A stretch of DNA of 64,000 nucleotides from an uncultured Spirochaetota bacterium (lineage in GTDB: Bacteria > Spirochaetota > Spirochaetia > SZUA-6 > Fen-1364). The stretch is taken from the NCBI GenBank assembly GCA_963845535.1, contig CAWJSK010000012.1:722339-786338 (forward strand), given 5' to 3'. A program made the translations under genes and the position numbers. Shown piece by piece: positions 1 through 14,201 of this stretch (positions are counted from its first letter, which is position 1; every line of letters begins with the position of its first letter). A model generated the notes under the pieces. That model was not told the DNA's origin. It saw nothing but the letters and a program-made list of their open reading frames with translations, and did not search any database.

Positions 1-342
1 CGCGAACTGGTTTTCGAGCTTCTTGTACTGGGCAACGGTCAAGGACGGCTTCCGCCTTTCATTCTTACGTTCCTCTATCTTGTATCGTTATTATCGGCGC
101 GATATTCGCCATGAATGGGCCATGAATATCTCATAATTTTCTGTTATACGCGACATTGCGTGCAGAGCCGTTGCGAGTCAAGCCCTGTACTCGGACCTCT
201 TGAGCTCCGGGGCACGTGTGAAAAGCCTTCGCAGAAAAGCGGCGGCGTGAAAATATTGCACAGCGGAAAACCCGCACGTACGCGTTTTTGCCGAGAACTG
301 CCCTGAATTTGGTCTCGAAGTGGTCGATTTCTATCCCAACCC

Positions 343-358
343 TGGCACGGTCCTTGCA
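343..358 (+). promoter_or_regulatory. sigma54 (RpoN) -24/-12 promoter for the gene starting at 392
   Basis: TGGCAC-ggtcc-TTGCA (343-348 / 354-358) is an exact match to TGGCAC-N5-TTGCA with GG-N10-GC spacing. AGGAGG 381-386 and ATG 392 lie just downstream. A sigma54 activator gene sits at 2363-3679. Confidence 0.8.
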
Positions 359-391
359 TTACTTGCTAGCAACAAATGCAAGGAGGCCACT

Positions 392-944
392 ATGGCTAAG
401 AAACTTATCATGGTCCTTATGGCGCTCTCACTGGCAACCGCGGCTTTTGCCAACGGCCAGAACGAGCAGGGCCCGGGCGGGGCATTCCATGGCGACAAGG
501 TCACCCTCAAGGGCACCGTGTCCCTTCAGAGCTTCCCGCAGACAATCCTCAAGGTGGGAGACAAGGAATACCTGTTGATGGTTCCACCCTATCTGGTCGA
601 ACAGTCCGGAGTGAAGGAAGGGGCACAGGTAACAGTGCAGGGCTACCAGATGAACTACCTCCCGCGGTACGGATCGTCGGCGAACGACAAGAACCTGACC
701 GGCCTTTTCGTCACCCATGGCCACGGTTGGGGGAAAAGACTATGACTTGTCCAACTACGGCCCAGGGTACGGCCCCCGCGGGTATGGCCCGGGTTACGGG
801 ATGATGGGCGGCTACGGACAGGGCTATGGCCCTGGCTACGGAATGATGGGCGGCTACGGACCCGGCGGTGGTTATGGCCGAGGCTACGGGATGATGGGCG
901 GTTATGGGGCGGGCTATGGCCCCGGCGCATGGTGCTGGGATTGA
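392..944 (+). pseudogene. Secreted small protein with a Gly/Tyr/Met-rich repeat tail; reading frame changes near 715-725 (frameshift, assembly error or recoding)
   Basis: RBS AGGAGG plus ATG 392, then signal peptide MAKKLIMVLMALSLATAAFA. ORF 320..745 stops at 745. Overlapping ORF 717..944 has no RBS or signal peptide and continues the same strand pattern (KVGDKEYLL earlier, TVGGKDYDL after the shift). A terminator follows at 978-1003. Confidence 0.6.
780..911 (+). repeat. Three in-frame tandem repeats of about 42-48 nt encoding GYG(P/R)GYGMMGGYGx
   Basis: Translation of 717..944 reads GYGPGYGMMGGYGQ / GYGPGYGMMGGYGPGG / GYGRGYGMMGGYGA, with partial units on both sides. Confidence 0.85.
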
Positions 945-977
945 TTCCCCGCTCCTCGCCCAAAGCGATTCTCTTCA

Positions 978-1003
978 GGGCCAGCGCGTGCTGGCCCTTT
1001 TTT
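978..1003 (+). terminator. Rho-independent terminator
   Basis: Stem-loop GGGCCAGC-gcgt-GCTGGCCC (978-997) followed by TTTTTT (998-1003). Confidence 0.8.
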
Positions 1004-1028
1004 GTTCAGGGAGATATCCTTGTCGCGA

Positions 1029-2366
1029 ATGAATGCATCCTCTCGTGAAACGAGATTCCTCGTTGCAGCATTCCTGGCGCTCTTCGTGGGCCTGGGCATT
1101 CTCTCCGTCTTTTTATTGACCGGGGAATCCGGCAAGGCCCAGATACTCGTGGAATACGAGGCTGACCGAATTGCGTCGACTTTGGCGGACTCCTATCGCG
1201 CGGATGGCTCGCTTGACCAGGACAAACTCGATCCGAGGATCAGGGGGTTCGGATTATATGATCCCAACGGCGACTCCCTGGCTCGCGTCGGAGACGCCCC
1301 CGCTTCGTTCGACCTGGGAGACCCGCGTCCTGGGTTCAGCTACAACTCTGCACAGGAGCTTCTCACGCTCCAGCGAATCTTCGGCATGGGCCCCGGGATG
1401 ATGGGGCCGGATCCAGAGCAAGGCCCGGAGGCCCCCATGATGGGCAGCGGCATGATGGGCCGCATGATGGGCGGCTCTCACGGGCCGTGGTCGTCAGGGC
1501 AATCGCGGCTGTTCGGGCAACCGCCCCACGGAATGCTTCACGGGCCGGCCGGGGCGCTTTTCCTCACCATGGACATCTCCGCGTACTATCGTTCCCAGCT
1601 CCTTTACAAAACCGCGGCCGTGGCGGCGCCGCTTTTGGTTGCCGGAATTGCCTCGCTGTTCTTCTTCCTCTTGTTCAGCAATCTCCGTCAAAGACGCCGA
1701 ACACAGGAACAGGAGACCCTGGCCAGGCTGGGGGAGAGCGCGCGGACCCTCGCCCATGAGATCAGAAACCCCCTCAGTGCCATTCGGATCCAGTCCGGAC
1801 TCCTGCGCAGGAAGATGCCCGGCGAAGCTTCCGCCCAGCTTGACGCAATCGATGAGGAAGTGGAAAGGCTTTCGCTTCTGTCTCGCCGGGTGGGTGACTT
1901 CCTGAAGAACCCTCGAGGCGACCCTCAGAGGATCTTCCTGCATGAGTTCCTGGCGGAGTTGGCGGAGAAGTTGCCCATGCCCGTGGCATATTCCGCGGGA
2001 GCCGGGGTCCAGGAGTTGACGGTGAGCTTTGACCGCGACCTTCTGCGCTCCGCCGTGGAAAATCTGGTTCGTAACGCGCAGGAGAGCTACCCGGATGAGG
2101 ACGGCGGCCGCGACGTGGAGCTTGCGCTCCTGCGGGAAAAGGCATCGACCGTCATTGCGATACGGGACCGCGGGAAAGGAATCCCTCCTGAGCTGCGGGA
2201 GAAAGTGTTCGACCCGTTTTTCACCGACAAGGTGCATGGCTCGGGCGTCGGGCTGTCCCTTTCACGCAGGCTTATCGAAGCTGCCGGCGGCACCCTCACT
2301 CTCGTTGCCCGAAACGGGGGCGGCACCGAAGCCCGCATAACCTTCCCGGCGCGGATTGCAGCATGA
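1029..2366 (+). CDS. Membrane sensor histidine kinase (ZraS/AtoS-like) with a Met/Gly-rich periplasmic loop
   Basis: N-terminal TM helix, periplasmic region and second TM helix. H-box LAHEIRNPLSAI; ATPase boxes DRGKGIP and GSGVGLSLSRRLIEAAGG. The first ATG is 1029; the ORF-track start 1002 is a TTG inside the terminator T-run. Confidence 0.85.
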   Translation: MNASSRETRFLVAAFLALFVGLGILSVFLLTGESGKAQILVEYEADRIASTLADSYRADGSLDQDKLDPRIRGFGLYDPNGDSLARVGDAPASFDLGDPRPGFSYNSAQELLTLQRIFGMGPGMMGPDPEQGPEAPMMGSGMMGRMMGGSHGPWSSGQSRLFGQPPHGMLHGPAGALFLTMDISAYYRSQLLYKTAAVAAPLLVAGIASLFFFLLFSNLRQRRRTQEQETLARLGESARTLAHEIRNPLSAIRIQSGLLRRKMPGEASAQLDAIDEEVERLSLLSRRVGDFLKNPRGDPQRIFLHEFLAELAEKLPMPVAYSAGAGVQELTVSFDRDLLRSAVENLVRNAQESYPDEDGGRDVELALLREKASTVIAIRDRGKGIPPELREKVFDPFFTDKVHGSGVGLSLSRRLIEAAGGTLTLVARNGGGTEARITFPARIAA

Positions 2367-3679
2367 GAGTCCTCATCGCGGATGATGAAAAGAACATCCG
2401 GGATTCGATTGCGGCCTTCATCGCCTCAGAAGGCTTGGAGACAGCCGTTGCCGCTGACGGCGCGGAAGCCAGGGCGCTGCTTGAAAATGAGGCATTCGAT
2501 TGTCTGATCCTCGACCTGCGAATGCCGAAAATGGACGGCCTCGCGGTCCTGGCGTGGCTGCAGGAAGCCGGGCCGCGGATGCCGGTGATCGTCATTTCCG
2601 CCTACGGGGACGTGCGGGACGCAGTCCAAGCCATGAAGCTCGGCGCAAAAGACTACCTGGTCAAGCCGTTCGACCCTGAGGAGCTGGTCCTGCGGGTGCG
2701 TCGCGCGCTGTCGGAGAACGCCCTCGCCGGGCAGGCTGAGGCAGGGCGGCGCGCAATGGCCGCGGGAAGCTGGATCGGCGAGGACGAAAAGATGAAAGCC
2801 GTCCGCTCCCTCGCGGAGAAGGTGGCGCCCACCTCCTCCACCGTGCTGATCACGGGAGAAAGCGGCACCGGAAAGGAAGTGGTGGCCCGCCTGCTGCACG
2901 CGCTCTCCGCCAACCCTGACGGACCGTTTGTCGCCATCAACGTCGGCGGCGTGCCGGAGGCCCTGCTGGAATCGGAGCTGTTCGGCCACGAAAAAGGGGC
3001 GTTCACCGGGGCCACTGAGCGCAAACGCGGCATGTTCGAGCTTGCCTCATCAGGGACGCTTTTTCTCGATGAGATCGGCGACATGCCCATGCACCTGCAG
3101 GTCAAGCTTCTGCGCGTGCTGCAGGAGAGGAAAGTCCAGCACCTGGGCAGCACGCAGGCAATCCCCATCAACGCGCGGATCATCGCCGCGACGAACAGGG
3201 AGCTGGAGAAGCAGCTCTCCGAGGGCACCTTCCGCGAGGACCTGTACTACCGCCTCAACGTGATCCGCATCGACGTACCGCCCCTGCGGGAAAGGCGCGG
3301 TGACATCCCGGCCCTTGCGGGTTTCTTTGTGGAGAAGCTCAACCGCCAGGTGGGGCGCAAAATGCGCGGGTTCGAGCCGGAAGCGCTGGCCCGCCTCTCA
3401 GCGTACAGTTTCCCGGGGAATGTGCGCGAGCTGGAGAACGCAGTCGAACGGGCGTACATCCTGAGCTCGGGAGAGCTCATCAGCGCGCGGGACCTGGGCG
3501 CGCCGTTCTCCCGCGCCGAGCGCGTTCCAAAAACCGGCAAGCTGCGGGACCAGGAGAGGGAGCTCATCGAAAAGACCCTTGCCCGCCACGGCGGGAACCG
3601 CACTCACGCCGCGCAGGAGCTGGGAATCAGCCGCAGGACCCTCATCAACAAGATCAAGGAAGCCGGCCTGGAGGGCTGA
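2363..3679 (+). CDS. Sigma54-dependent response regulator (NtrC/ZraR family)
   Basis: REC domain (RVLIADDE, LILDLRMPKMDG). AAA+ domain with GESGTGKE Walker A and the ESELFGHEKGAFTGA sigma54-contact loop. C-terminal Fis-type HTH AAQELGISRRTLINKIK. The start overlaps the kinase stop. Confidence 0.92.
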   Translation: MRVLIADDEKNIRDSIAAFIASEGLETAVAADGAEARALLENEAFDCLILDLRMPKMDGLAVLAWLQEAGPRMPVIVISAYGDVRDAVQAMKLGAKDYLVKPFDPEELVLRVRRALSENALAGQAEAGRRAMAAGSWIGEDEKMKAVRSLAEKVAPTSSTVLITGESGTGKEVVARLLHALSANPDGPFVAINVGGVPEALLESELFGHEKGAFTGATERKRGMFELASSGTLFLDEIGDMPMHLQVKLLRVLQERKVQHLGSTQAIPINARIIAATNRELEKQLSEGTFREDLYYRLNVIRIDVPPLRERRGDIPALAGFFVEKLNRQVGRKMRGFEPEALARLSAYSFPGNVRELENAVERAYILSSGELISARDLGAPFSRAERVPKTGKLRDQERELIEKTLARHGGNRTHAAQELGISRRTLINKIKEAGLEG

Positions 3680-3744
3680 GGCTCGCACGCCGCATTGGAG
3701 TGGAAGGCCGCGTCGCCCACGGCGCAGGTTCCTCCTCCGTGGCG

Positions 3745-4164
3745 TCAGCCCTCGCGGATGGTGATCTTCGTCTCTATAGGTCCCGCGTTCCGCACGGTGG
3801 CCGCAACAGAGCAATACTTGGTCTGGCTCAGCTCCACCGCCCGCTCCACGGCTTCACGGTCAATCCCCTTGCCCGTCACGATGTACTCGATTTCAAACCG
3901 TGTAAGGGATCGGGGGTGCTCCTCCGCCTGGTCGCCATGGGTCTTCACCTCGAATGCGGTGACCTGTTGGCGTTTCTTTTCCAGGATGGAGATCACGTCC
4001 ATTGCCGTGCAGCCCGCCAGTCCCACCAGGACCAGCTCCAGGGGCCGAAACCCGTCGTTATCACCGCCCACCTTGGGGCTGGCGCCCAAGGGAAGGGAGA
4101 AATTGCTCGTGAGCCCTGTGCCGGTAAAGCTCATCCCTTTCTTCCACACCACAGACGCATCCAT
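3745..4164 (-). CDS. osmC: OsmC/Ohr family peroxiredoxin-like protein
   Basis: GFRPLELVLVGLAGCTAMDV and KYCSVAATV supply the two conserved Cys. ATG at 4164 overlaps the upstream stop (TGATG). Confidence 0.8.
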   Translation of the reverse strand: MDASVVWKKGMSFTGTGLTSNFSLPLGASPKVGGDNDGFRPLELVLVGLAGCTAMDVISILEKKRQQVTAFEVKTHGDQAEEHPRSLTRFEIEYIVTGKGIDREAVERAVELSQTKYCSVAATVRNAGPIETKITIREG

Positions 4165-4730
4165 CACGGAGCCTCCGTTTCCTCGTTGAGGTAATCCCCC
4201 ACTGTCCCCCCGGTGATCGAGACGAGCTGGTCGAAGGTCATCGGGACTCCCGAACAATCCGTTCCCGCGGCGGGGTAGATCATCTTGTACTGCGACAGAC
4301 CTGAGTCGATGAAAATGCGGATTGCGCCGTCAATCCCGAATGGGCAGACGCCGCCGGGCCCGAAGCCGGTTGCGGCAAGGGCTTCGTCCGCGCTCGCCAT
4401 CCGGGACTTGACCCCCGTGACTGCCTTGAGCTTTGCGGAGGAAAGACGGCGGTCTCCGGGAGCTATGACCATGAAGACCTTGCCGTTCTTGCCCATGAAC
4501 AGGAGGGATTTTGCGATCTGCCCCACCGACACGCCGAGCTGCTGCGCCGCAAGAACTGAGGTGGCGGTGCTGCCTGCCTCGAACTCAGTCGCTCGCAACC
4601 CGTGCGCGTCGAGCACGGCGCGAACCTTGTCTGGAATCATGATTGAGTCTACGAGAGACACCCCCGGATCGTCAACATCCGGCATCTCACCAAAGTCCGG
4701 CATCTGATTTGACTGAATGCCGGTGAACAC
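4164..4730 (-). CDS. YbaK/EbsC-type aminoacyl-tRNA deacylase domain protein
   Basis: QIAKSLLFMGKNGKVFMVIAPGDRRLSSAKL and GGVCPFG motifs. Start uncertain: GTG 4730 or ATG 4640. Confidence 0.7.
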   Translation of the reverse strand: MFTGIQSNQMPDFGEMPDVDDPGVSLVDSIMIPDKVRAVLDAHGLRATEFEAGSTATSVLAAQQLGVSVGQIAKSLLFMGKNGKVFMVIAPGDRRLSSAKLKAVTGVKSRMASADEALAATGFGPGGVCPFGIDGAIRIFIDSGLSQYKMIYPAAGTDCSGVPMTFDQLVSITGGTVGDYLNEETEAP

Positions 4731-4775
4731 ATACCTTTGTCAGTCGAGGGCAGCAACAACAAGAAAGGACCCAGC

Positions 4776-5498
4776 ATGGCAAGCCTGATCGAGCCCACGT
4801 GCGACAAGAAAGTGACGAAGGAAGAACTCTTGAAGAAGATGAAAGGCAAGCCTGACTTCATCCTTGAGGATCACTACTGCAAAGGAGTGGGCGCCTACTG
4901 CCTGGACGATGACCTGTGCGTGCAGATGGTGGCAAGCGCCAAGCTTCCGACGCGCTTCGGCACCTTCACGCTGTACGGGTTCTTCGACAGTCGGGATGAG
5001 AAGGAGCACACGGCTATCGTGCAAGGCGACGTATCCGGAAAAGAGCGGGTGCCGCTTCGCGTGCATTCCGAGTGCCATACCGGCGACGTGTGGGGATCCC
5101 TGCGCTGCGACTGCCGCGACCAGCTTGAAGCCGCAACGAAGTTCATCTCACGCCAGCCCTTCGGCGCGGTGATCTACCTCAAGCAGGAAGGCCGCGGCAT
5201 CGGCCTTCTGAACAAGATCAAGGCCTATCAGCTCCAGGACCTCGGGCTGGACACCGTGGAGGCCAACCAGTTCCTGAACATGCCCGTGGATGCGCGCGAC
5301 TACAAAGTTGCCGCCAGGATCATCCAGCTCCTGAAGATCCGATCCGTCTCGCTTCTCACGAACAACCCTGACAAGATCGAGCAGCTCAAGGCGGAGGGGA
5401 TAGACGTGGCGGACAGGATCCCCATCGTGATCCCTTCCAACAGCTATGATGAGGACTACCTGGACGTGAAGAAACGCAAGATGGGACACCTAATCTGA
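4776..5498 (+). CDS. ribA: GTP cyclohydrolase II
   Basis: RVHSECHTGDVWGSLRCDCRDQL and YLKQEGRGIGLLNKIKAYQLQDLGLDTVEAN. First ATG at 4776 with AAAGGA upstream. Confidence 0.9.
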   Translation: MASLIEPTCDKKVTKEELLKKMKGKPDFILEDHYCKGVGAYCLDDDLCVQMVASAKLPTRFGTFTLYGFFDSRDEKEHTAIVQGDVSGKERVPLRVHSECHTGDVWGSLRCDCRDQLEAATKFISRQPFGAVIYLKQEGRGIGLLNKIKAYQLQDLGLDTVEANQFLNMPVDARDYKVAARIIQLLKIRSVSLLTNNPDKIEQLKAEGIDVADRIPIVIPSNSYDEDYLDVKKRKMGHLI

Positions 5499-6731
5499 AG
5501 GCTGAAGCTCCCCTGCCGCCTTTGCAATCCTCTCCATGGCTTCTTCGGTGAGCTCCCGCGTGTTGAAGGCGCTCATGCGGACGTAGCCTTCTCCGCACCT
5601 CCCGAAGCCGCTTCCCGGCGTGATCACCACCGCGGCTTTTGCGAGCAGCCTGTCGAAGAAGCTCCACGAATCTCCGCCTACCATTGCCCAGACGTACGGG
5701 GAGTTTTCCCCTCCAATGCAGGGAAACCCGAGCGCGTCCATCTTCTGGCGGATGAGACGGGCGTTGCCGAGGTAATAGTCCGAGAGGCCGCGCGTCTCCT
5801 TCTTGCCCTCCGGGGTGAAGACAGCCGCGGCGGCGCGCTGCACGGGATAGGAGACCCCGTTGAGCTTGGTGGACTGGCGGCGTGACCACATGGCGTGGAG
5901 GGAGTGCTCCTTCCCGTCCGAATCCCAGGCCATGCACGTTTTGGGCACCACCGTGTAGGCGCAACGCGTCCCGGTAAAGCCGGCGGTCTTGGAGAAGCTT
6001 CGAAACTCGATTGCGCACTCCCGAGCGCCAGGGATTTCATAGATGGAATGCGGGATGGATTCGTCCCGAATGAAGGAGACATACGCTGCGTCGTACAGGA
6101 TGAGAGCCTTCGCCGCCCGGGCGTAGTCCACCCACGCGGCAAGCCGCGCGCGGTCAATGGTCGCCCCGGTGGGGTTATTGGGGAAGCACAGGTAGATCAA
6201 GTCCACGCGGGACTTGGGCGGATCAGGGATGAACCCGTTGTCTTCCGTGCAGTCGAGGTAGATCAGCCCGGAATACCTGCCGTCCCGGTAGGCTCCCGTG
6301 CGGCCTGCCATGACGTTGGTGTCCACGTAAACCGGGTATACCGGGTCAGGGATGGCAATCCTGATGTCGCCGGCAAAAAGCTCCTGGATATTGGCCGTGT
6401 CGGACTTGGCCCCGTCACTGATCGCTATCTCATCAGCGCTGATGTCCGCGCCGCGCGCCTTGAAGTCGTTCTCCGCGATTGCCGCACGCAGAAAATCGAA
6501 CCCGAGGTCGGGCGGATAACCGCGAAAAGTCTGTGCGCTTCCCAGCTCCTCCACCGCCTGGCGGAATGCCTTCACGATGGCGGGCGTCAGAGGAAGCGTC
6601 ACGTCGCCGACCCCCAGGCTTATCACCTTCGCGTCCGCCCGCTGCTCCTTGAACGCCGCGACCCGCCGGGAGATCTCGCTGAAAAGATACGATGAGGACA
6701 GCTTCGGGTAGTTGGGGTTGATCCGGATCAT
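5490..6731 (-). CDS. dapL: LL-diaminopimelate aminotransferase
   Basis: N-terminus MIRINPNYPKLSSSYLFSEI; PLP-lysine context SFSKTAGFTGTRCAY; 413 aa. Confidence 0.88.
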   Translation of the reverse strand: MIRINPNYPKLSSSYLFSEISRRVAAFKEQRADAKVISLGVGDVTLPLTPAIVKAFRQAVEELGSAQTFRGYPPDLGFDFLRAAIAENDFKARGADISADEIAISDGAKSDTANIQELFAGDIRIAIPDPVYPVYVDTNVMAGRTGAYRDGRYSGLIYLDCTEDNGFIPDPPKSRVDLIYLCFPNNPTGATIDRARLAAWVDYARAAKALILYDAAYVSFIRDESIPHSIYEIPGARECAIEFRSFSKTAGFTGTRCAYTVVPKTCMAWDSDGKEHSLHAMWSRRQSTKLNGVSYPVQRAAAAVFTPEGKKETRGLSDYYLGNARLIRQKMDALGFPCIGGENSPYVWAMVGGDSWSFFDRLLAKAAVVITPGSGFGRCGEGYVRMSAFNTRELTEEAMERIAKAAGELQPSD

Positions 6732-9452: not shown

Positions 9453-11593
9453 CTAGTTGCCATTGCCGTTCGCCCCGTGGCCGTTGCCGTTCCCTTCTAT
9501 CTGGACTTTCACGATGTGGGGCGTCGGCGCGCCGGGAAGGGCGACCCCGTTGTCACCGTCGGCCTTGATCTTGAATTGCGCGGTCATGCGCTGCAGCTCC
9601 TGCGCCATGCTGGAAAGCTGCTCGGTGGAGGAGGACATCTCTTCCGCTGATGATGCCGCCGACTGTGTCAGCTCGTTCACGCTCTCGACGGCCTTGGACA
9701 CCTGCTTCGAGTTCGCGCTCTGCTGTTCGGTGGCGGCTGAGATGCTCTGGCTCATCTCGCTGACGTTCTCCAGCGCCTTGGCCAGCTCCTTGATGGCGCC
9801 AACCTGCTGCTGCATGCTGTCGGTGAGCTCGGCAATCATGTCCTTCACCTTTTGAGAAGCGCCGCGGATCTGCTCCATGGCGCCCTGGGAGCCGTTGGCA
9901 ATCTCCACGCCCCTGGTCACGTTCTTTACGCTTTCCCTGATGAGCCCTTCTATCTCCTTGGTTGAAGAAGAGGACCGGTCCGCCAGCTTGCTCACCTCGT
10001 CTGCAACCACCGCGAACCCGCGACCGTGCTCCCCTGCCCTCGCCGCCTCGATGGAAGCGTTCAACGCCAGGAGGTTCGTCTGGTCGGCGATATCGGAGAT
10101 GACGTTTATGATCCCGCCGATCTTCTCGGAGCTTTCGGCGATCAGCGTGATCCCCCGCACCACTTCCGTGACGGCCCGCGCCCCTTCCTGTGCATTCTCC
10201 ACGGACTTCGCCGCAAGCCCCGAGATCTCGGTGAGACTGTGTGAGATGTCGTCAATGGACTTCTGCACCTGCGCCATGGAGCTTGCTCCCTGCTCCACCG
10301 CCGCCGCCTGCGACTGTGCGTTCTCACTGACCTGGTCAACGGAGGCGGACAGCTCTTCCACGGAAGCTGATGTCTCCTCGAGCGTCGAGGCCTGGCTCTG
10401 CGCCCCTTCGGCAAGGGACATGGAGCTGGCGGAGATCTCCTCGCTGGAGGCTGCCACTTGCTCTGCGCTTTCCTGGATGGTGGCAACCATGCCTCTCAGT
10501 CTCACCGACATGGAGTTGAGCGCATCGGCGAGCTTCCCCACTTCGTCGCGCTGATGGATGGGGAGCTGTTGAGTGAAATCCCCCCCGGCTACAAGCTGCG
10601 CGAACTCGACCCCGCGGCGTATGGGGATTCGTGATGCCGCGCGAAAACAGCAGGAAGACAAGGAAAGCGAGAATGACCGCCGCCAAACCCGACGAGCATG
10701 ACGAGGTTTCGCACCTCGTAGATCGTTCCGAGGTACTCGGCGTCCGGAAGCGTAAAGCCGACGCTCCATCCCGTGGAAGCCACGGGCGCGTACCCTGCGG
10801 TCTTCGCCACTCCCTGGAACACGTAGTGATCGACCCCGGCTTCTCCGTTGACCATCTTGGCGGCAAAGCCTTCCGAGCCTTTCTGTTCGAGCAGGTTCAT
10901 CTTGAGGATATTCTCCGCGTTCGGATGCGCGATGATGATGCCGGAACGGTCAACCACATAGGCATACCCGGTCTTTCCGATCGTCTCCTTGACGATCATG
11001 TCGTTCAGGAAGCCGATGTCCACGATCAACGTGGCCACGCCGACGACCCGATCCCCATCCTTCACGGGCATGGCCACGGGAGACACAGGTTTGCCGGAAA
11101 CCTTGCTTTGTACCACCATTCCAATGCTGGGTTTTCCTGCCAGCCCGTCTTTCACGTACTGCCTCTCGCGCAGATCGAGCCCGACGTCGCTGTTGTCGGA
11201 GCTGGTGATGACCAATCCGCTCGAGCCGACGAGGGTGACCCTTTCATAGGCCCCGCCCAACTGCGGGTTGTCGTGGAACGTCGAAAGCTTGCGAAAAGCC
11301 GCCGCGAGCTCCTTCTGTGACTTTGCCGCGCCTTTGTCTGCTTCTGCCGCGGCCGCCGCCACGATGGTCGGGTCAGTTGCAAGGCTCAGGGCAATGCGGC
11401 TTTCCTCGGCGAAGACCCTGTCGACCACCTGGGCGGTATCCTTGGCCCGTGCTCCAAGCTGTTCACGTTCGATTGCCGTGAGCCCTGTCGTGGAACGGGC
11501 GACGCTGAAGAACGCCACGATCAGCAGAGGGATGATCATGATGATCGTTCCGACCGTAATGAGCTTGGCCCCGATTCGAATGTTCTTTAGCAT
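9453..11593 (-). pseudogene. Methyl-accepting chemotaxis protein (dCache sensor + HAMP + MCP signalling domain), interrupted by two frame changes around TM2
   Basis: ORF 10589..11611 encodes TM1 plus the Cache domain. TM2 ([16 protein letters not shown]) is readable only in the third frame (ORF 10336..10866). HAMP and the signalling domain ([28 protein letters not shown]) are in ORF 9453..10769. RBS AGGAGG precedes ATG 11593. Confidence 0.85.
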
Positions 11594-11635
11594 CTGTTGC
11601 CTCCTAGCCACGCCTGCTCGCGGCTAAGGACAGAA

Positions 11636-11810: not shown

Positions 11811-13214
11811 TCAATCCGGGGTTTCCCTGCTCAGGCCGTGCTTTTTCAGCTTTTCGTAAAGGTTCGGCCTGGGAATTTCGGATATCCGAGCCGCCTGTGA
11901 GATGTTTCCGCCCGCCTGCGCCAGAAGAGCTTTCAAATATTCGCGCTCGAAATCGTCCTTGGCGGCTGCAAACGGCTTGACCAGGCTGTCCGCCAGGGGG
12001 CCAGGGCTGGCGGGAAGGTCCCGCAGGTTGGCCGGCAGGTCCTTCGGGAGTAGCTCGGTCCCCTCGGTGACGGCCACGGCGCGCTCCACCACGTTCTCGA
12101 GCTCTCGGATGTTGCCGTCCCATCTGTAGCGAAGGAACGCGTTCATAACCTCAGAAGAAATCCCTTTCACGTCCTTCTGGAACTCCAGCGCGTAACGGCG
12201 AAGGAAGTGATACGCCAGGAGCGACACGTCTTCCGTGCGTTCTCGAAGCGGCGGCACGTGGACCGTGATGACGTTGATACGATAGTACAGGTCTTTGCGG
12301 AATCTGCCTTCCTGGACTTCCTGCTCCAATTCCCGGTTGGTGGATGCAATGACGCGCACGTCGTTCGCGATGTCCTCCGTGCCGCCCAGGCGCTGGAAAC
12401 TGTGCTCCTGCAGGACGCGGAGCAGCTTCACCTGCAGCTCCCCGGACATCTCGCTGATCTCATCGAGGAAGATCGTGCCGCCGTCCGCGGCTTCGAAATA
12501 GCCGATCTTGCGGCTGTCAGCGCCCGTGAACGCGCCGCGCTCGTAGCCGAACAGCTCGCTTTCAAGCAGGTTCACCGGGATCACCCCGCAGTTGATGCCG
12601 ACGAACCTTTTCCCGGCCCTCGGGCTCTTCTCGTGGATGGACCTGGCCAGGAGCTCCTTGCCCGTCCCGCTTTCCCCCTGCAGCAGCACGGTGCTTCGAA
12701 GCGGCGCCACCTTCTCCACGAGCTGGAAGATGTCGAGCATCTTCTTGCTCCTGGCAATGATGGCCCCGCCGCCGCCCGAAAGGGCAAGGGACTCCCGCAG
12801 CGCGTTGTATTCACGCTTGAGCCTGCGGTACTCGAGGATCCTCTTGATGATCAACCCGAAAGCTTCGAGCTGCAGGGGCTTCAGCATGTACTCCTCAGCC
12901 CCGAGCTTCATTGCCTCCACGGCGGTCTTCACCGCGCCGTAGGCCGTCAGGATGATGACGGATGCGCTCTCATCGATCTTCCTGATCTCCTGCAGCACGC
13001 TGAGCCCGTCCATCTCCGGCATCTTCAGGTCGAGCACGATCAGGTCGTAGCTTGTTTTCTGCGCGAGCGTTATGGCCGTTGACCCGCGGGTTGTGGCGTC
13101 GACGGCGCACCCCATGCGCTGGAGAAACATCGAAAGCACGTCGAGGATGGCTTTCTCATCATCGACGATGAGGACCCGGCAGACAAGCTCGGCTGCAGCG
13201 GGAGTGCCGCTCAT
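11811..13214 (-). CDS. Sigma54-dependent response regulator (NtrC family)
   Basis: REC domain (RVLIVDDEK, LIVLDLKMPEMDG). AAA+ domain (GESGTGKE, ESELFGYERGAFTGA). C-terminal HTH (AARISEIPRPNLYEKLKK). The true start is M214 of the 680-aa ORF. Confidence 0.9.
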   Translation of the reverse strand: MSGTPAAAELVCRVLIVDDEKAILDVLSMFLQRMGCAVDATTRGSTAITLAQKTSYDLIVLDLKMPEMDGLSVLQEIRKIDESASVIILTAYGAVKTAVEAMKLGAEEYMLKPLQLEAFGLIIKRILEYRRLKREYNALRESLALSGGGGAIIARSKKMLDIFQLVEKVAPLRSTVLLQGESGTGKELLARSIHEKSPRAGKRFVGINCGVIPVNLLESELFGYERGAFTGADSRKIGYFEAADGGTIFLDEISEMSGELQVKLLRVLQEHSFQRLGGTEDIANDVRVIASTNRELEQEVQEGRFRKDLYYRINVITVHVPPLRERTEDVSLLAYHFLRRYALEFQKDVKGISSEVMNAFLRYRWDGNIRELENVVERAVAVTEGTELLPKDLPANLRDLPASPGPLADSLVKPFAAAKDDFEREYLKALLAQAGGNISQAARISEIPRPNLYEKLKKHGLSRETPD

Positions 13215-13304
13215 TTCTTCCACAGTAATCCATCCTCGGCGCGCGCGCAAGAACTGCGCGGCGCCTTGCAATTCCCGCGCTGAATGGGCATCCTGGGCGG
13301 ACAC

Positions 13305-14201
13305 ATGACAGCCCTCGCGCCAACTACCGGGAACCAGAGAGGCAAGGCGCTTCTCGCCCTGACCGCGTGCGCGCTCCTCTGGAGCACCGGGGGCCTCCTC
13401 ATCAAAATCGTTGACTGGAACCCGTTCGCCATCGCCGGGACGCGCAGCCTGATTGGCGGCCTCCTCATCCTTGCCGTGATCCGGCGGCCCCGGTTCACGT
13501 GGTCTTTCGCGCAGGTCGCCGGCGCCGTCACGTACGCCGGCTGCATGGTGTGCTTTGTGGCCGCCAACAAGCTGACCACCGCGGCAAACGCCATCCTGCT
13601 CCAATACACCGCCCCTCTGTACGCCGCGATCCTTGGCTGGGTTTTCCTCCGGGAGAAGGCCACCGCCATAGACTGGGCCACCATCGTCGTGGTGCTGGGC
13701 GGAATGGTGCTGTTCTTCCTGGACAAGCTCGGGGCCGGGGGAATGGCAGGCAACCTGCTTGCCATCGTGAGCGGCGTGTTCTTCGCAGGGACCATGGTGG
13801 CGCTTCGCAAGCAGAAGGACGGCTCTCCGCTCGAGTCGCTCCTGCTGAGCCACGCCATCACGTTCGTCATCGCCATCCCCTTCCTTTGGGGGCCGGCCCC
13901 GAGCCTCCCCTCCGCGGCAGGGCTCGCCCTGCTCGGAGTGGTCCAGATCGGAATCCCTTCATTTCTTCTCATCTACGGAGTCAGGCGCGTGACGGCCCTT
14001 CAGACGATCCTGACCTCCGTGCTCGAGCCGATCTTCAATCCGATCTGGGTGTTCCTGTTCCTTGGAGAGAGGCCCGGACCTCGCGCGCTCCTGGGCGGCG
14101 CCATCATCCTGGTTGCCGTGACGGCGCGCTCGGTGGTCAGCCTTCGATTGGCGGTCCGGCCGGCTGGTGTCGGCTCACAAGCAGAACACCGGCAAGGATG
14201 A
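13305..14201 (+). CDS. EamA/DMT family transporter
   Basis: About ten hydrophobic helices in two EamA-like halves (LLWSTGGLLIK, LLQYTAPLYAAILG). Confidence 0.8.
   Translation: MTALAPTTGNQRGKALLALTACALLWSTGGLLIKIVDWNPFAIAGTRSLIGGLLILAVIRRPRFTWSFAQVAGAVTYAGCMVCFVAANKLTTAANAILLQYTAPLYAAILGWVFLREKATAIDWATIVVVLGGMVLFFLDKLGAGGMAGNLLAIVSGVFFAGTMVALRKQKDGSPLESLLLSHAITFVIAIPFLWGPAPSLPSAAGLALLGVVQIGIPSFLLIYGVRRVTALQTILTSVLEPIFNPIWVFLFLGERPGPRALLGGAIILVAVTARSVVSLRLAVRPAGVGSQAEHRQG

Follow-up and report, generated by a model that had tools for sequence, protein, structure and literature searches.

A proposed ZraPSR-like sigma-54 module with a predicted OB-fold periplasmic protein in soil Spirochaetota

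A small gene for a secreted protein lies near the start of a 64,000-nucleotide (nt) stretch of DNA from an uncultured Spirochaetota bacterium (GenBank contig CAWJSK010000012.1; the whole stretch is referred to below as the window), and it is followed on the same strand by genes for a membrane histidine kinase and an NtrC-family activator. We propose that the three genes form a self-contained signaling module of soil Spirochaetota that resembles the ZraPSR system of Escherichia coli and Salmonella, and we favor a soft metal as its signal; we give this reading a probability of about 0.55. The predicted chain, which runs from the kinase to the activator, from there to two upstream dyads and a sigma-54 promoter, and finally to an exported small protein, is well supported by the anatomy of the locus and by its conservation. 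The identity of the signal is the weakest step; a soft metal ion, for example, Cu(I) or Ag(I), is the most likely one. The features of the module, numbered from the first base of the window, are the following.

217-233, plus strand: distal enhancer-like dyad of 17 base pairs (bp), TGTGAAAAGCCTTCGCA, centered at about -144 from the predicted transcription start
246-262, plus strand: proximal enhancer-like dyad of 17 bp, CGTGAAAATATTGCACA, centered at about -115 from the predicted start
343-358, plus strand: sigma-54 promoter TGGCAC-N5-TTGCA (TGGCACGGTCCTTGCA), exact -24/-12 consensus, with GG at 344-345 and GC at 356-357
380-386, plus strand: ribosome-binding site AAGGAGG, 5 nt 5' of the ATG at 392
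392-745, plus strand: 5' part of the gene for the small secreted protein, with the signal peptide and the predicted OB-fold domain (from the list of open reading frames, ORFs)
718, plus strand: insertion of one nt (an extra T) that is specific to the window, ACCCA[T]GGCC, and absent from contigs L001-L004
719-944, plus strand: 3' part of the small gene in a shifted frame, with the last predicted OB strand and a tail of 65 amino acids (aa) that ends in WCWD (ORF 717-944)
977-1006, plus strand: intrinsic terminator with a 9-bp GC-rich stem, a 4-nt loop and a T-run (hairpin at 977-998, then TTTTTTGTT)
1015-1022, plus strand: conserved TATCCTTG box, 6 nt 5' of the kinase ATG
1029-2366, plus strand: membrane histidine kinase with a first transmembrane helix (TM1), a putative PDC-like periplasmic domain, a second transmembrane helix (TM2), HisKA and HATPase_c (Pfam and AlphaFold2)
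2363-3679, plus strand: NtrC-family sigma-54 activator with REC, Sigma54_activat, AAA_lid_14 and HTH_8 domains (Pfam)

An earlier reading of the same DNA (the original prediction) had claimed a sigma-54 promoter, a ribosome-binding site, a signal peptide, a strong terminator, a membrane histidine kinase and an NtrC-family activator, and had likened their regulatory logic to that of ZraPSR. All of these parts are present, and the likeness in logic is strongly supported by conservation across about 40 loci, which make up the comparative evidence on the circuit. The frameshift in the small gene, a Met/Gly motif in the sensor of the kinase and the two upstream dyads go beyond that prediction.

The promoter has its GG and GC doublets exactly 10 bp apart and predicts a transcription start near position 369. 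It is the sole match to TGGCAY-N5-TTGCW on both strands of the 64 kb; the chance level for this and other motifs was taken from 100 shuffles of the window, in which the pattern occurred 0.12 times on average and at least once in 11 of the 100. The GG-N10-GC promoter is kept in all 32 relatives that have at least 34% identity and readable upstream DNA, and by our own arithmetic from base frequencies such a pattern would be met by chance at a rate of about 1e-3 per 130-nt upstream region. Only the four most distant loci (30-33% identity) are without it. The distance from the promoter to the ATG is 46-51 nt in all of the close relatives (loci with at least 41% identity) and 83-109 nt in distant relatives whose proteins have about 139 aa. 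The ribosome-binding site lies in a region, CAAGGAGGCCA, that is invariant across the orthologues, and an Rfam scan of positions 1-4300 at E-values up to 1 gave zero matches, neither to a riboswitch nor to a known leader. Among the genes of the window there is no rpoN; however, the two activators with a GAFTGA motif that are encoded there imply that the organism has RpoN.

The two dyads fit the pattern YGYGAAA-N5-KCRCA, which was derived from the window sites and their orthologues themselves and which occurs in the 64 kb only at 217-233 and 246-262. Its mean number in the shuffles was 0.13, and none of the 100 had two or more. Orthologous loci also have two 17-bp dyads, of the form TGYGAAA-N5-KCRCA, about 100-130 bp 5' of the promoter; their offsets from it are -126 and -97 in six loci and -105 and -76 in L014, and wherever both dyads could be scored their spacing is fixed at 29 bp. 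The proximal dyad reads TGCGAAAAATCTGCGCA in several orthologues. Some of the changes preserve the palindrome, for example, TGAG..CTCA in L010, TGCGCAG..CTGCGCA in L009 and CGGG..CCCG in L013. Paired dyads of this kind, some 80-150 bp 5' of a promoter, are the layout expected for the sites of an NtrC-family activator, and we regard them as candidate, enhancer-like sites.

The small protein begins with a Sec signal peptide that has an AxA cleavage site, located between MAKKLIMVLMALSLATAAFA and NGQ. An AlphaFold2 model, made with 33 homologues as input, shows residues 31-118 folded into a beta-barrel in which a single helix separates strand 3 from strand 4 (predicted local distance difference test score, pLDDT, of 86-93); the strands are at 32-44, 51-55, 58-62, 79-87, 102-112 and 115-118 and the helix is at 66-72. 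Residues 119-183 are disordered in the model, with a pLDDT of about 40. When the model was compared with the Protein Data Bank (PDB) by Foldseek, every top match was an OB fold, including tRNA-synthetase anticodon domains, SSB, Rho, engineered OBodies and potempin A, and none had an E-value of 1e-3 or below. The protein is modelled, then, as a signal peptide, an OB-fold barrel and a disordered tail that contains GYGPGYGMMG. The 65 residues of the tail include 29 Gly, 12 Tyr, 6 Met and 6 Pro, and its coding DNA consists of imperfect 42-nt tandem repeats (783-926). The intact protein has 183 aa (P0001) and is encoded by all four of the near-identical contigs L001-L004, which come from three sources (ENA, NCBI and Logan assemblies). 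The predicted secreted, Gly/Tyr/Met-rich protein is encoded whole in these contigs, but in the window it is not encoded in one frame; the inserted T places the Gly/Tyr/Met tract in another frame (717-944) than the folded domain (392-745).

The family to which the protein belongs appears to be undescribed and unannotated, with sequences that indicate periplasmic proteins linked to sigma-54. Pfam and NCBIfam gave zero families above threshold, and a profile search of the PDB sequences gave no solved structure. The original prediction had suggested looking for the family in relatives; an exhaustive phmmer search of 1.84 billion representatives recovered 67 clusters at 50% identity with an E-value of at most 1e-3. 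The layout was read in 23 of the 67 clusters and was the same in all 23, a signal peptide, an OB domain and a Gly-rich tail that nearly always has at least one MMG or GMxG. The C-terminus of the tail is an acidic or aromatic motif in relatives, WDWD and DDDQF being examples. Used alone as a query of the protein databases, the tail gave one irrelevant match, to a BA14K-family protein, since low complexity defeats such a search. One member of the family, P0044 (271 aa), has two tandem OB domains, each with its own low-complexity linker or tail. Three other identities were considered and rejected. The Pfam match to DUF1905 is below threshold (E 0.025); the NCBIfam match to ExtJ, a protein of a selenite/tellurite operon, covers the signal peptide and first strand only (E 0.0016, with 18.8 bits against a required 52.5); and a barrel site of the CusF type, made of His, an aromatic residue and Met, fails on the His, which is missing in the protein of the window and in several relatives.

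Between the small gene and the kinase gene stands the terminator, with a hairpin energy of -19 kcal/mol (z = -3.1). The hairpin GCCAGCG..CGCTGGC is kept in all of the orthologous loci while the loops vary, and L005 has a compensatory change from G-C to A-U in the stem. The T-run is kept in most loci and is weak or absent in L013 and L015. Straight after the terminator all loci except L009, whose region ends at the terminator, have a TATCCT core, which is TATCCTTG in most of them. This box might serve the kinase-activator pair as the -10 element of a transcript without a leader, or else as a translation signal.

The periplasmic part of the kinase was modelled by AlphaFold2 as residues 1-225. 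TM1 and its helix cover residues 3-59 and are followed by four strands, a disordered segment at 120-173, a fifth strand and a helix at 184-224 that leads into TM2. The topology of this model, a long N-terminal helix and five strands between two transmembrane helices, would be PDC-like, and the pLDDT is 70-87 outside of the disordered loop. Only three sequences served as input for this model because the sensor region, used as a query, gave just two matches. Foldseek found weak matches to the sensor domains of WalK, KinD, CzcS and DcuS (E at least 4.5e-3). The disordered segment is a 54-aa insertion that is rich in Met and Gly and reads GMGPGMMGPDPEQGPEAPMMGSGMMGRMMGG..., and all orthologues examined, the most distant included, have a tract of the GPGMMG type here. 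As modelled, therefore, both the kinase loop and the tail of the small protein would be disordered periplasmic segments, and they have a GxGMMG motif in common. Met accounts for 10 of 53 residues in the loop and for 6 of 65 in the tail. The loop is followed closely by a His that is mostly conserved.

The activator has strong Pfam matches (E of 1e-33 for REC, 6e-71 for Sigma54_activat and 2e-16 for the C-terminal HTH), with an intact GAFTGA motif at window position 2996 and intact Walker motifs. Its closest solved structure is the Aquifex NtrC-family protein 4l4u. The activator gene starts 4 nt inside the end of the kinase gene, an overlap from which we predict that the activator is translationally coupled to the kinase. 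A second sigma-54 activator is encoded on the minus strand at 11811-13853; it has 680 aa, with an N-terminal extension of about 225 aa, REC, an AAA+ domain with GAFTGA, and HTH_8. The window has no second sigma-54 consensus promoter.

The order of the genes is conserved together with their sequences. In every locus that has at least 41% identity and enough downstream DNA, the kinase gene comes after the small gene, and the activator gene follows the kinase gene wherever enough DNA is available; among these relatives the small gene, dyads, kinase and activator co-occur strictly. The more distant relatives L043-L061 (e.g., L044 at 4498-4917 and L059 at 4076-4495) are 34-52% identical, have about 139 aa and carry short tails that end in ...GGMMGRRW. 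Except for a distant truncated homologue in L059, they have no kinase within about 4.5 kb. The metagenome scan was based on the alignment of the closer relatives, as that of the distant ones was too divergent. All nine of the matches in reference genomes are to Spirochaetota or Spirochaetia metagenome-assembled genomes (MAGs) from soil and peat, and the window is 98-99% identical to contigs of one MAG, MFD03726.bin.4.276. The same MAG holds two cassettes (L007 and L009) that have 72% protein identity and the same flanks (OsmC and a YbaK-like gene); a mis-binned contig of a sister species is a more likely explanation of this than a paralogue.

From these parts we envision a circuit of the following kind. 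A periplasmic signal would act on the Met/Gly-rich loop of the kinase, which would then phosphorylate the activator. The activator would oligomerize on the dyads at about -144 and -115 and remodel the sigma-54 closed complex. A burst of synthesis of the small protein would follow, with export through the Sec pathway. Meanwhile, the terminator would keep the levels of kinase and activator largely independent of this burst. Once in the periplasm, the small protein may bind or buffer the same agent through its Met/Tyr-rich tail, and it would probably damp the kinase, as ZraP and CpxP do. Met thioethers and aromatic residues are typical periplasmic ligands of Cu(I) and Ag(I), for example, in CusF, CueO, PcoC and the Mets motifs of Ctr1. 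A soft metal is favored because of the Met and aromatic ligands, the mostly conserved His after the loop and a neighbor with an HMA domain in L013. As to the label 'envelope or metal stress' that the original prediction gave to the module, it is one that we infer from composition and analogy. A more daring and rather doubtful form of the circuit is that the induced protein is a soluble mimic of the ligand loop of its own sensor, so that the output titrates the input. The GxGMMG tract of the kinase and GYGPGYGMMG in the tail would then share a binding partner; this might be a metal ion or the OB barrel, or the two segments might co-assemble. Negative feedback of a 'decoy-loop' kind would be the result. 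If this were true, and taken with sigma-54 dependence throughout the family, it would be a new principle for the accessory proteins of two-component systems.

Several observations weigh against the module as we read it. The small gene is interrupted in this very window. The scan of positions 1-4200 for a sigma-70 consensus found none for the kinase-activator pair. The tail is without the clusters of His, Cys or Asp that are seen in many metal-binding tails, and the sole strongly conserved His of the sensor, the one that follows the kinase loop, is replaced in L014. The cassette adjoins neither an efflux pump nor a copper oxidase gene, and most of the genes around it are housekeeping genes whose synteny is conserved (OsmC, YbaK-like, M23 peptidase, glycine cleavage). 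That the small protein feeds back on the kinase is proposed purely by analogy. Finally, L043-L061 have no activator within about 4.5 kb and yet keep the sigma-54 promoter. This means that adjacency of the activator is not universal; the same observation makes sigma-54 dependence look family-wide.

It also lends something to the idea that another enhancer-binding protein drives the promoter, for example, the one encoded at 11811-13853, and that the adjoining pair controls other targets. A second activator is indeed present in the window, but the strict co-occurrence of small gene, dyads, kinase and activator among the relatives with at least 41% identity, and a dyad motif that is found nowhere else in the window, leave this idea very improbable. 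Two other explanations keep the circuit and change the signal. The kinase might sense oxidants through oxidation of Met, as the kinase HprS can, with the Met/Tyr-rich tail as a sacrificial sink in the periplasm. The sensor loop and the tail are both enriched in Met, and most orthologous loci have an OsmC-family gene right after the cassette in convergent orientation. In E. coli, the oxidation of Met in the periplasm, together with its repair, is an established stress axis (PMC9302797). However, the OsmC gene lies on the other strand, lacks a sigma-54 promoter and is missing beside the cassette in L013 and L015; moreover, no Msr genes adjoin, and the organisms, which are from peat and soil, are probably anaerobes. 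We consider oxidant sensing improbable. Somewhat less improbable, although still unlikely, is a generic role in envelope stress or structure, in which the kinase senses a perturbation of the envelope rather than a chemical bound by Met. In that case the small protein would act in the periplasm as a holdase or as a structural or elastic component, and its low-complexity tail would matter for its disorder and not for the chemistry of a ligand. ZraP, CpxP and Spy are accessory proteins of the chaperone type, and the tails of the distant relatives vary widely (they are rich in Gly and Arg with few Met) while the OB domain and the sigma-54 promoter are kept. Periplasmic OB-fold proteins of the YgiW/SipA type are stress proteins under two-component control (PMC5636140, PMC6370654). 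Against such a role, nearly all of the tails have at least one MMG or GMxG and the same motif is in all of the kinase sensor loops; a motif shared by tail and loop argues for a specific chemistry or interaction.

The interrupted gene raises a different doubt, namely that it is a real pseudogene in the source organism and that the module is inactive or decaying there. The ORF that starts at ATG 392 ends at 745 and encodes 117 aa with the C-terminus ...VTHGHGWGKRL, and this product is 99% identical to the intact P0001. A second extra base that is specific to the window, and absent from L001-L004, is found past the -12 element, at 362, and ahead of the predicted start. These two insertions fall within 360 nt, they are the only window-specific insertions or deletions (indels) in 7 kb, and both lie outside long homopolymers, all of which would favor a pseudogene. 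On the other side, four independent contigs from the same species-level population encode an intact gene, and the kinase and activator are intact. The frames of the window (those of the kinase, activator, YbaK-like, GTP cyclohydrolase II and aminotransferase genes) are unbroken at every place where L001 and L002 carry indels of their own. The window also has another split gene, for a chemoreceptor on the minus strand at 9453-11611, which consists of two overlapping ORFs with dCache_1 in 10589-11611 and HAMP plus MCPsignal in 9453-10769; this is probably another assembly indel. Relatives of the small gene, which is GC-rich and repetitive, are often frameshifted in databases, and three of them are frameshifted or truncated too. 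The split chemoreceptor and these three relatives are the reason that we lean towards an assembly error and away from a real mutation at 718, and we regard a pseudogene as unlikely, while giving it more weight than the alternatives weighed above. Programmed frameshifting at 718 was rejected, as the extra base is not present in near-identical contigs and a shift would leave the product without the last strands of the barrel.

The genes around the module display some patterns of their own. The OsmC-family and YbaK-like (tRNA_edit) genes are on the minus strand at 3745-4730, convergent with the activator gene, and they keep this position in most orthologous loci, OsmC being missing beside the cassette in L013 and L015. 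Upstream of the cassette in L013 (19-2570 and 4243-4650) are genes for a membrane protein with HMA, DsbD_2 and cupredoxin domains, an FtrD-like protein and a DUF302 protein. Directly 3' of the small gene in L059 (4651-6626) are an ArsR gene and an ACR3-like SBF transporter gene and then a truncated kinase whose N-terminus resembles that of the window kinase, and L058 has an ArsC-like low-molecular-weight phosphatase 2.3 kb downstream (6114-6545). Such arsenic or metal neighbors in L013, L058 and L059 are too few and too varied for a function to be assigned from them. At the other end of the module, an intergenic block at 95-150, CATGAATGGGCCATGAATATCTCATAATTTTCTGTTAT, is conserved as DNA in L005, L009, L010 and L012 while the flanking intergenic DNA diverges. 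It lies 5' of a divergent M23-peptidase gene (minus strand, start near 42) and may be the promoter or leader of that gene.

Sigma-54 circuits and responses to envelope or metal stress are almost unstudied in free-living Spirochaetota, and the cis-architecture of this module is unusually clean, with a promoter, two dyads, a terminator and a cognate two-component pair. The shared Met/Gly motif provides a concrete hypothesis for matching a periplasmic accessory protein to its kinase, and the matched motif in sensor loop and effector tail is the feature most worth testing. If the model of the barrel is right, a ZraP-like Gly/Met tail can sit on an unrelated fold. This would suggest that the tail, and not the folded domain, is the common functional element of periplasmic proteins that are controlled by sigma-54.

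Among known systems, some with an OB fold and some with a similar gene order have only part of the arrangement. CusF, a Cu(I)/Ag(I) metallochaperone, is also a periplasmic OB fold and is tied to soft metals by Met ligands and an aromatic residue. However, it has no sequence match to the small protein and is not among the top 50 Foldseek matches shown, the corresponding His is not conserved in the window family, and the Met of the window protein is in the tail and not in the barrel. The BOF proteins (YgiW, which is beside QseBC, and Vibrio cholerae SipA) are small periplasmic OB-fold proteins with a signal peptide that are induced by two-component systems under stress (PMC5636140, PMC6370654). 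They differ in that the window protein has no Pfam match to BOF, and BOF proteins have no low-complexity tail and no sigma-54 activators as regulators. The gene order resembles that of copMRS of Synechocystis PCC 6803, a copper-responsive system in which the gene for a periplasmic or secreted metal-binding protein also comes first, ahead of its controlling two-component pair (PMC4335983). In contrast to the module of the window, copMRS is one operon without an internal terminator, CopM belongs to another family, and CopR is of the OmpR type and does not depend on sigma-54. CpxP with CpxAR, and Spy, would be alike in that a regulated periplasmic protein is the main output and, by analogy, a probable modulator of its own sensor; they have sigma-70 promoters, OmpR-type regulators and helical LTXXQ proteins.

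The closest comparison is with ZraPSR, and the E. coli K-12 zraP-zraSR region was fetched so that it could be made directly. Both systems have a sigma-54 promoter, a small Sec-exported periplasmic protein and an adjoining kinase and NtrC-type activator; zraP is reportedly sigma-54-dependent (work of Leonhartsberger, 2001). The activator of the window is 45% identical to ZraR over its full length, and the two kinases, in both of which TM2 leads straight into HisKA, are 27% identical from TM2 onwards. E. coli ZraP even ends in GAGMGMGYGGCGGGGHMGMGHW, which is rich in Gly, Met and Tyr and has a terminal Trp. The folded domains, however, appear to be different, since the protein of the window is modelled as an OB-fold barrel whereas ZraP is a helical LTXXQ domain. 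The small protein has no LTXXQ or Metal_resist match in Pfam at E-values up to 0.1, and BLASTP aligns it with E. coli ZraP over the signal peptide only, so that the earlier view that it is probably not a ZraP homologue is borne out as far as searches and model can tell. Its tail is three times longer than that of ZraP, is repetitive and has no His or Cys. The periplasmic domains of the kinases have no sequence similarity, and E. coli zraP is divergent from zraSR whereas the genes of the window are co-directional with a terminator between them. Measured against the NCBIfam equivalog cut-offs for ZraR and ZraS, the activator has 402 bits versus 760 and the kinase 92 versus 479; the scores for AtoC and AtoS are better than these, yet below their own cut-offs, and the activator is below every NCBIfam equivalog cut-off. 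Because both proteins fall below the cut-offs, we regard the pair as members of the NtrC family and not as orthologues of ZraSR. ZraPSR is a zinc- and lead-responsive envelope-stress system for which functional homology to CpxPAR has been described (PMC12314577 and references therein). Judged from its genes, the system described here is ZraPSR-like in its wiring and not a member of the ZraPSR family.

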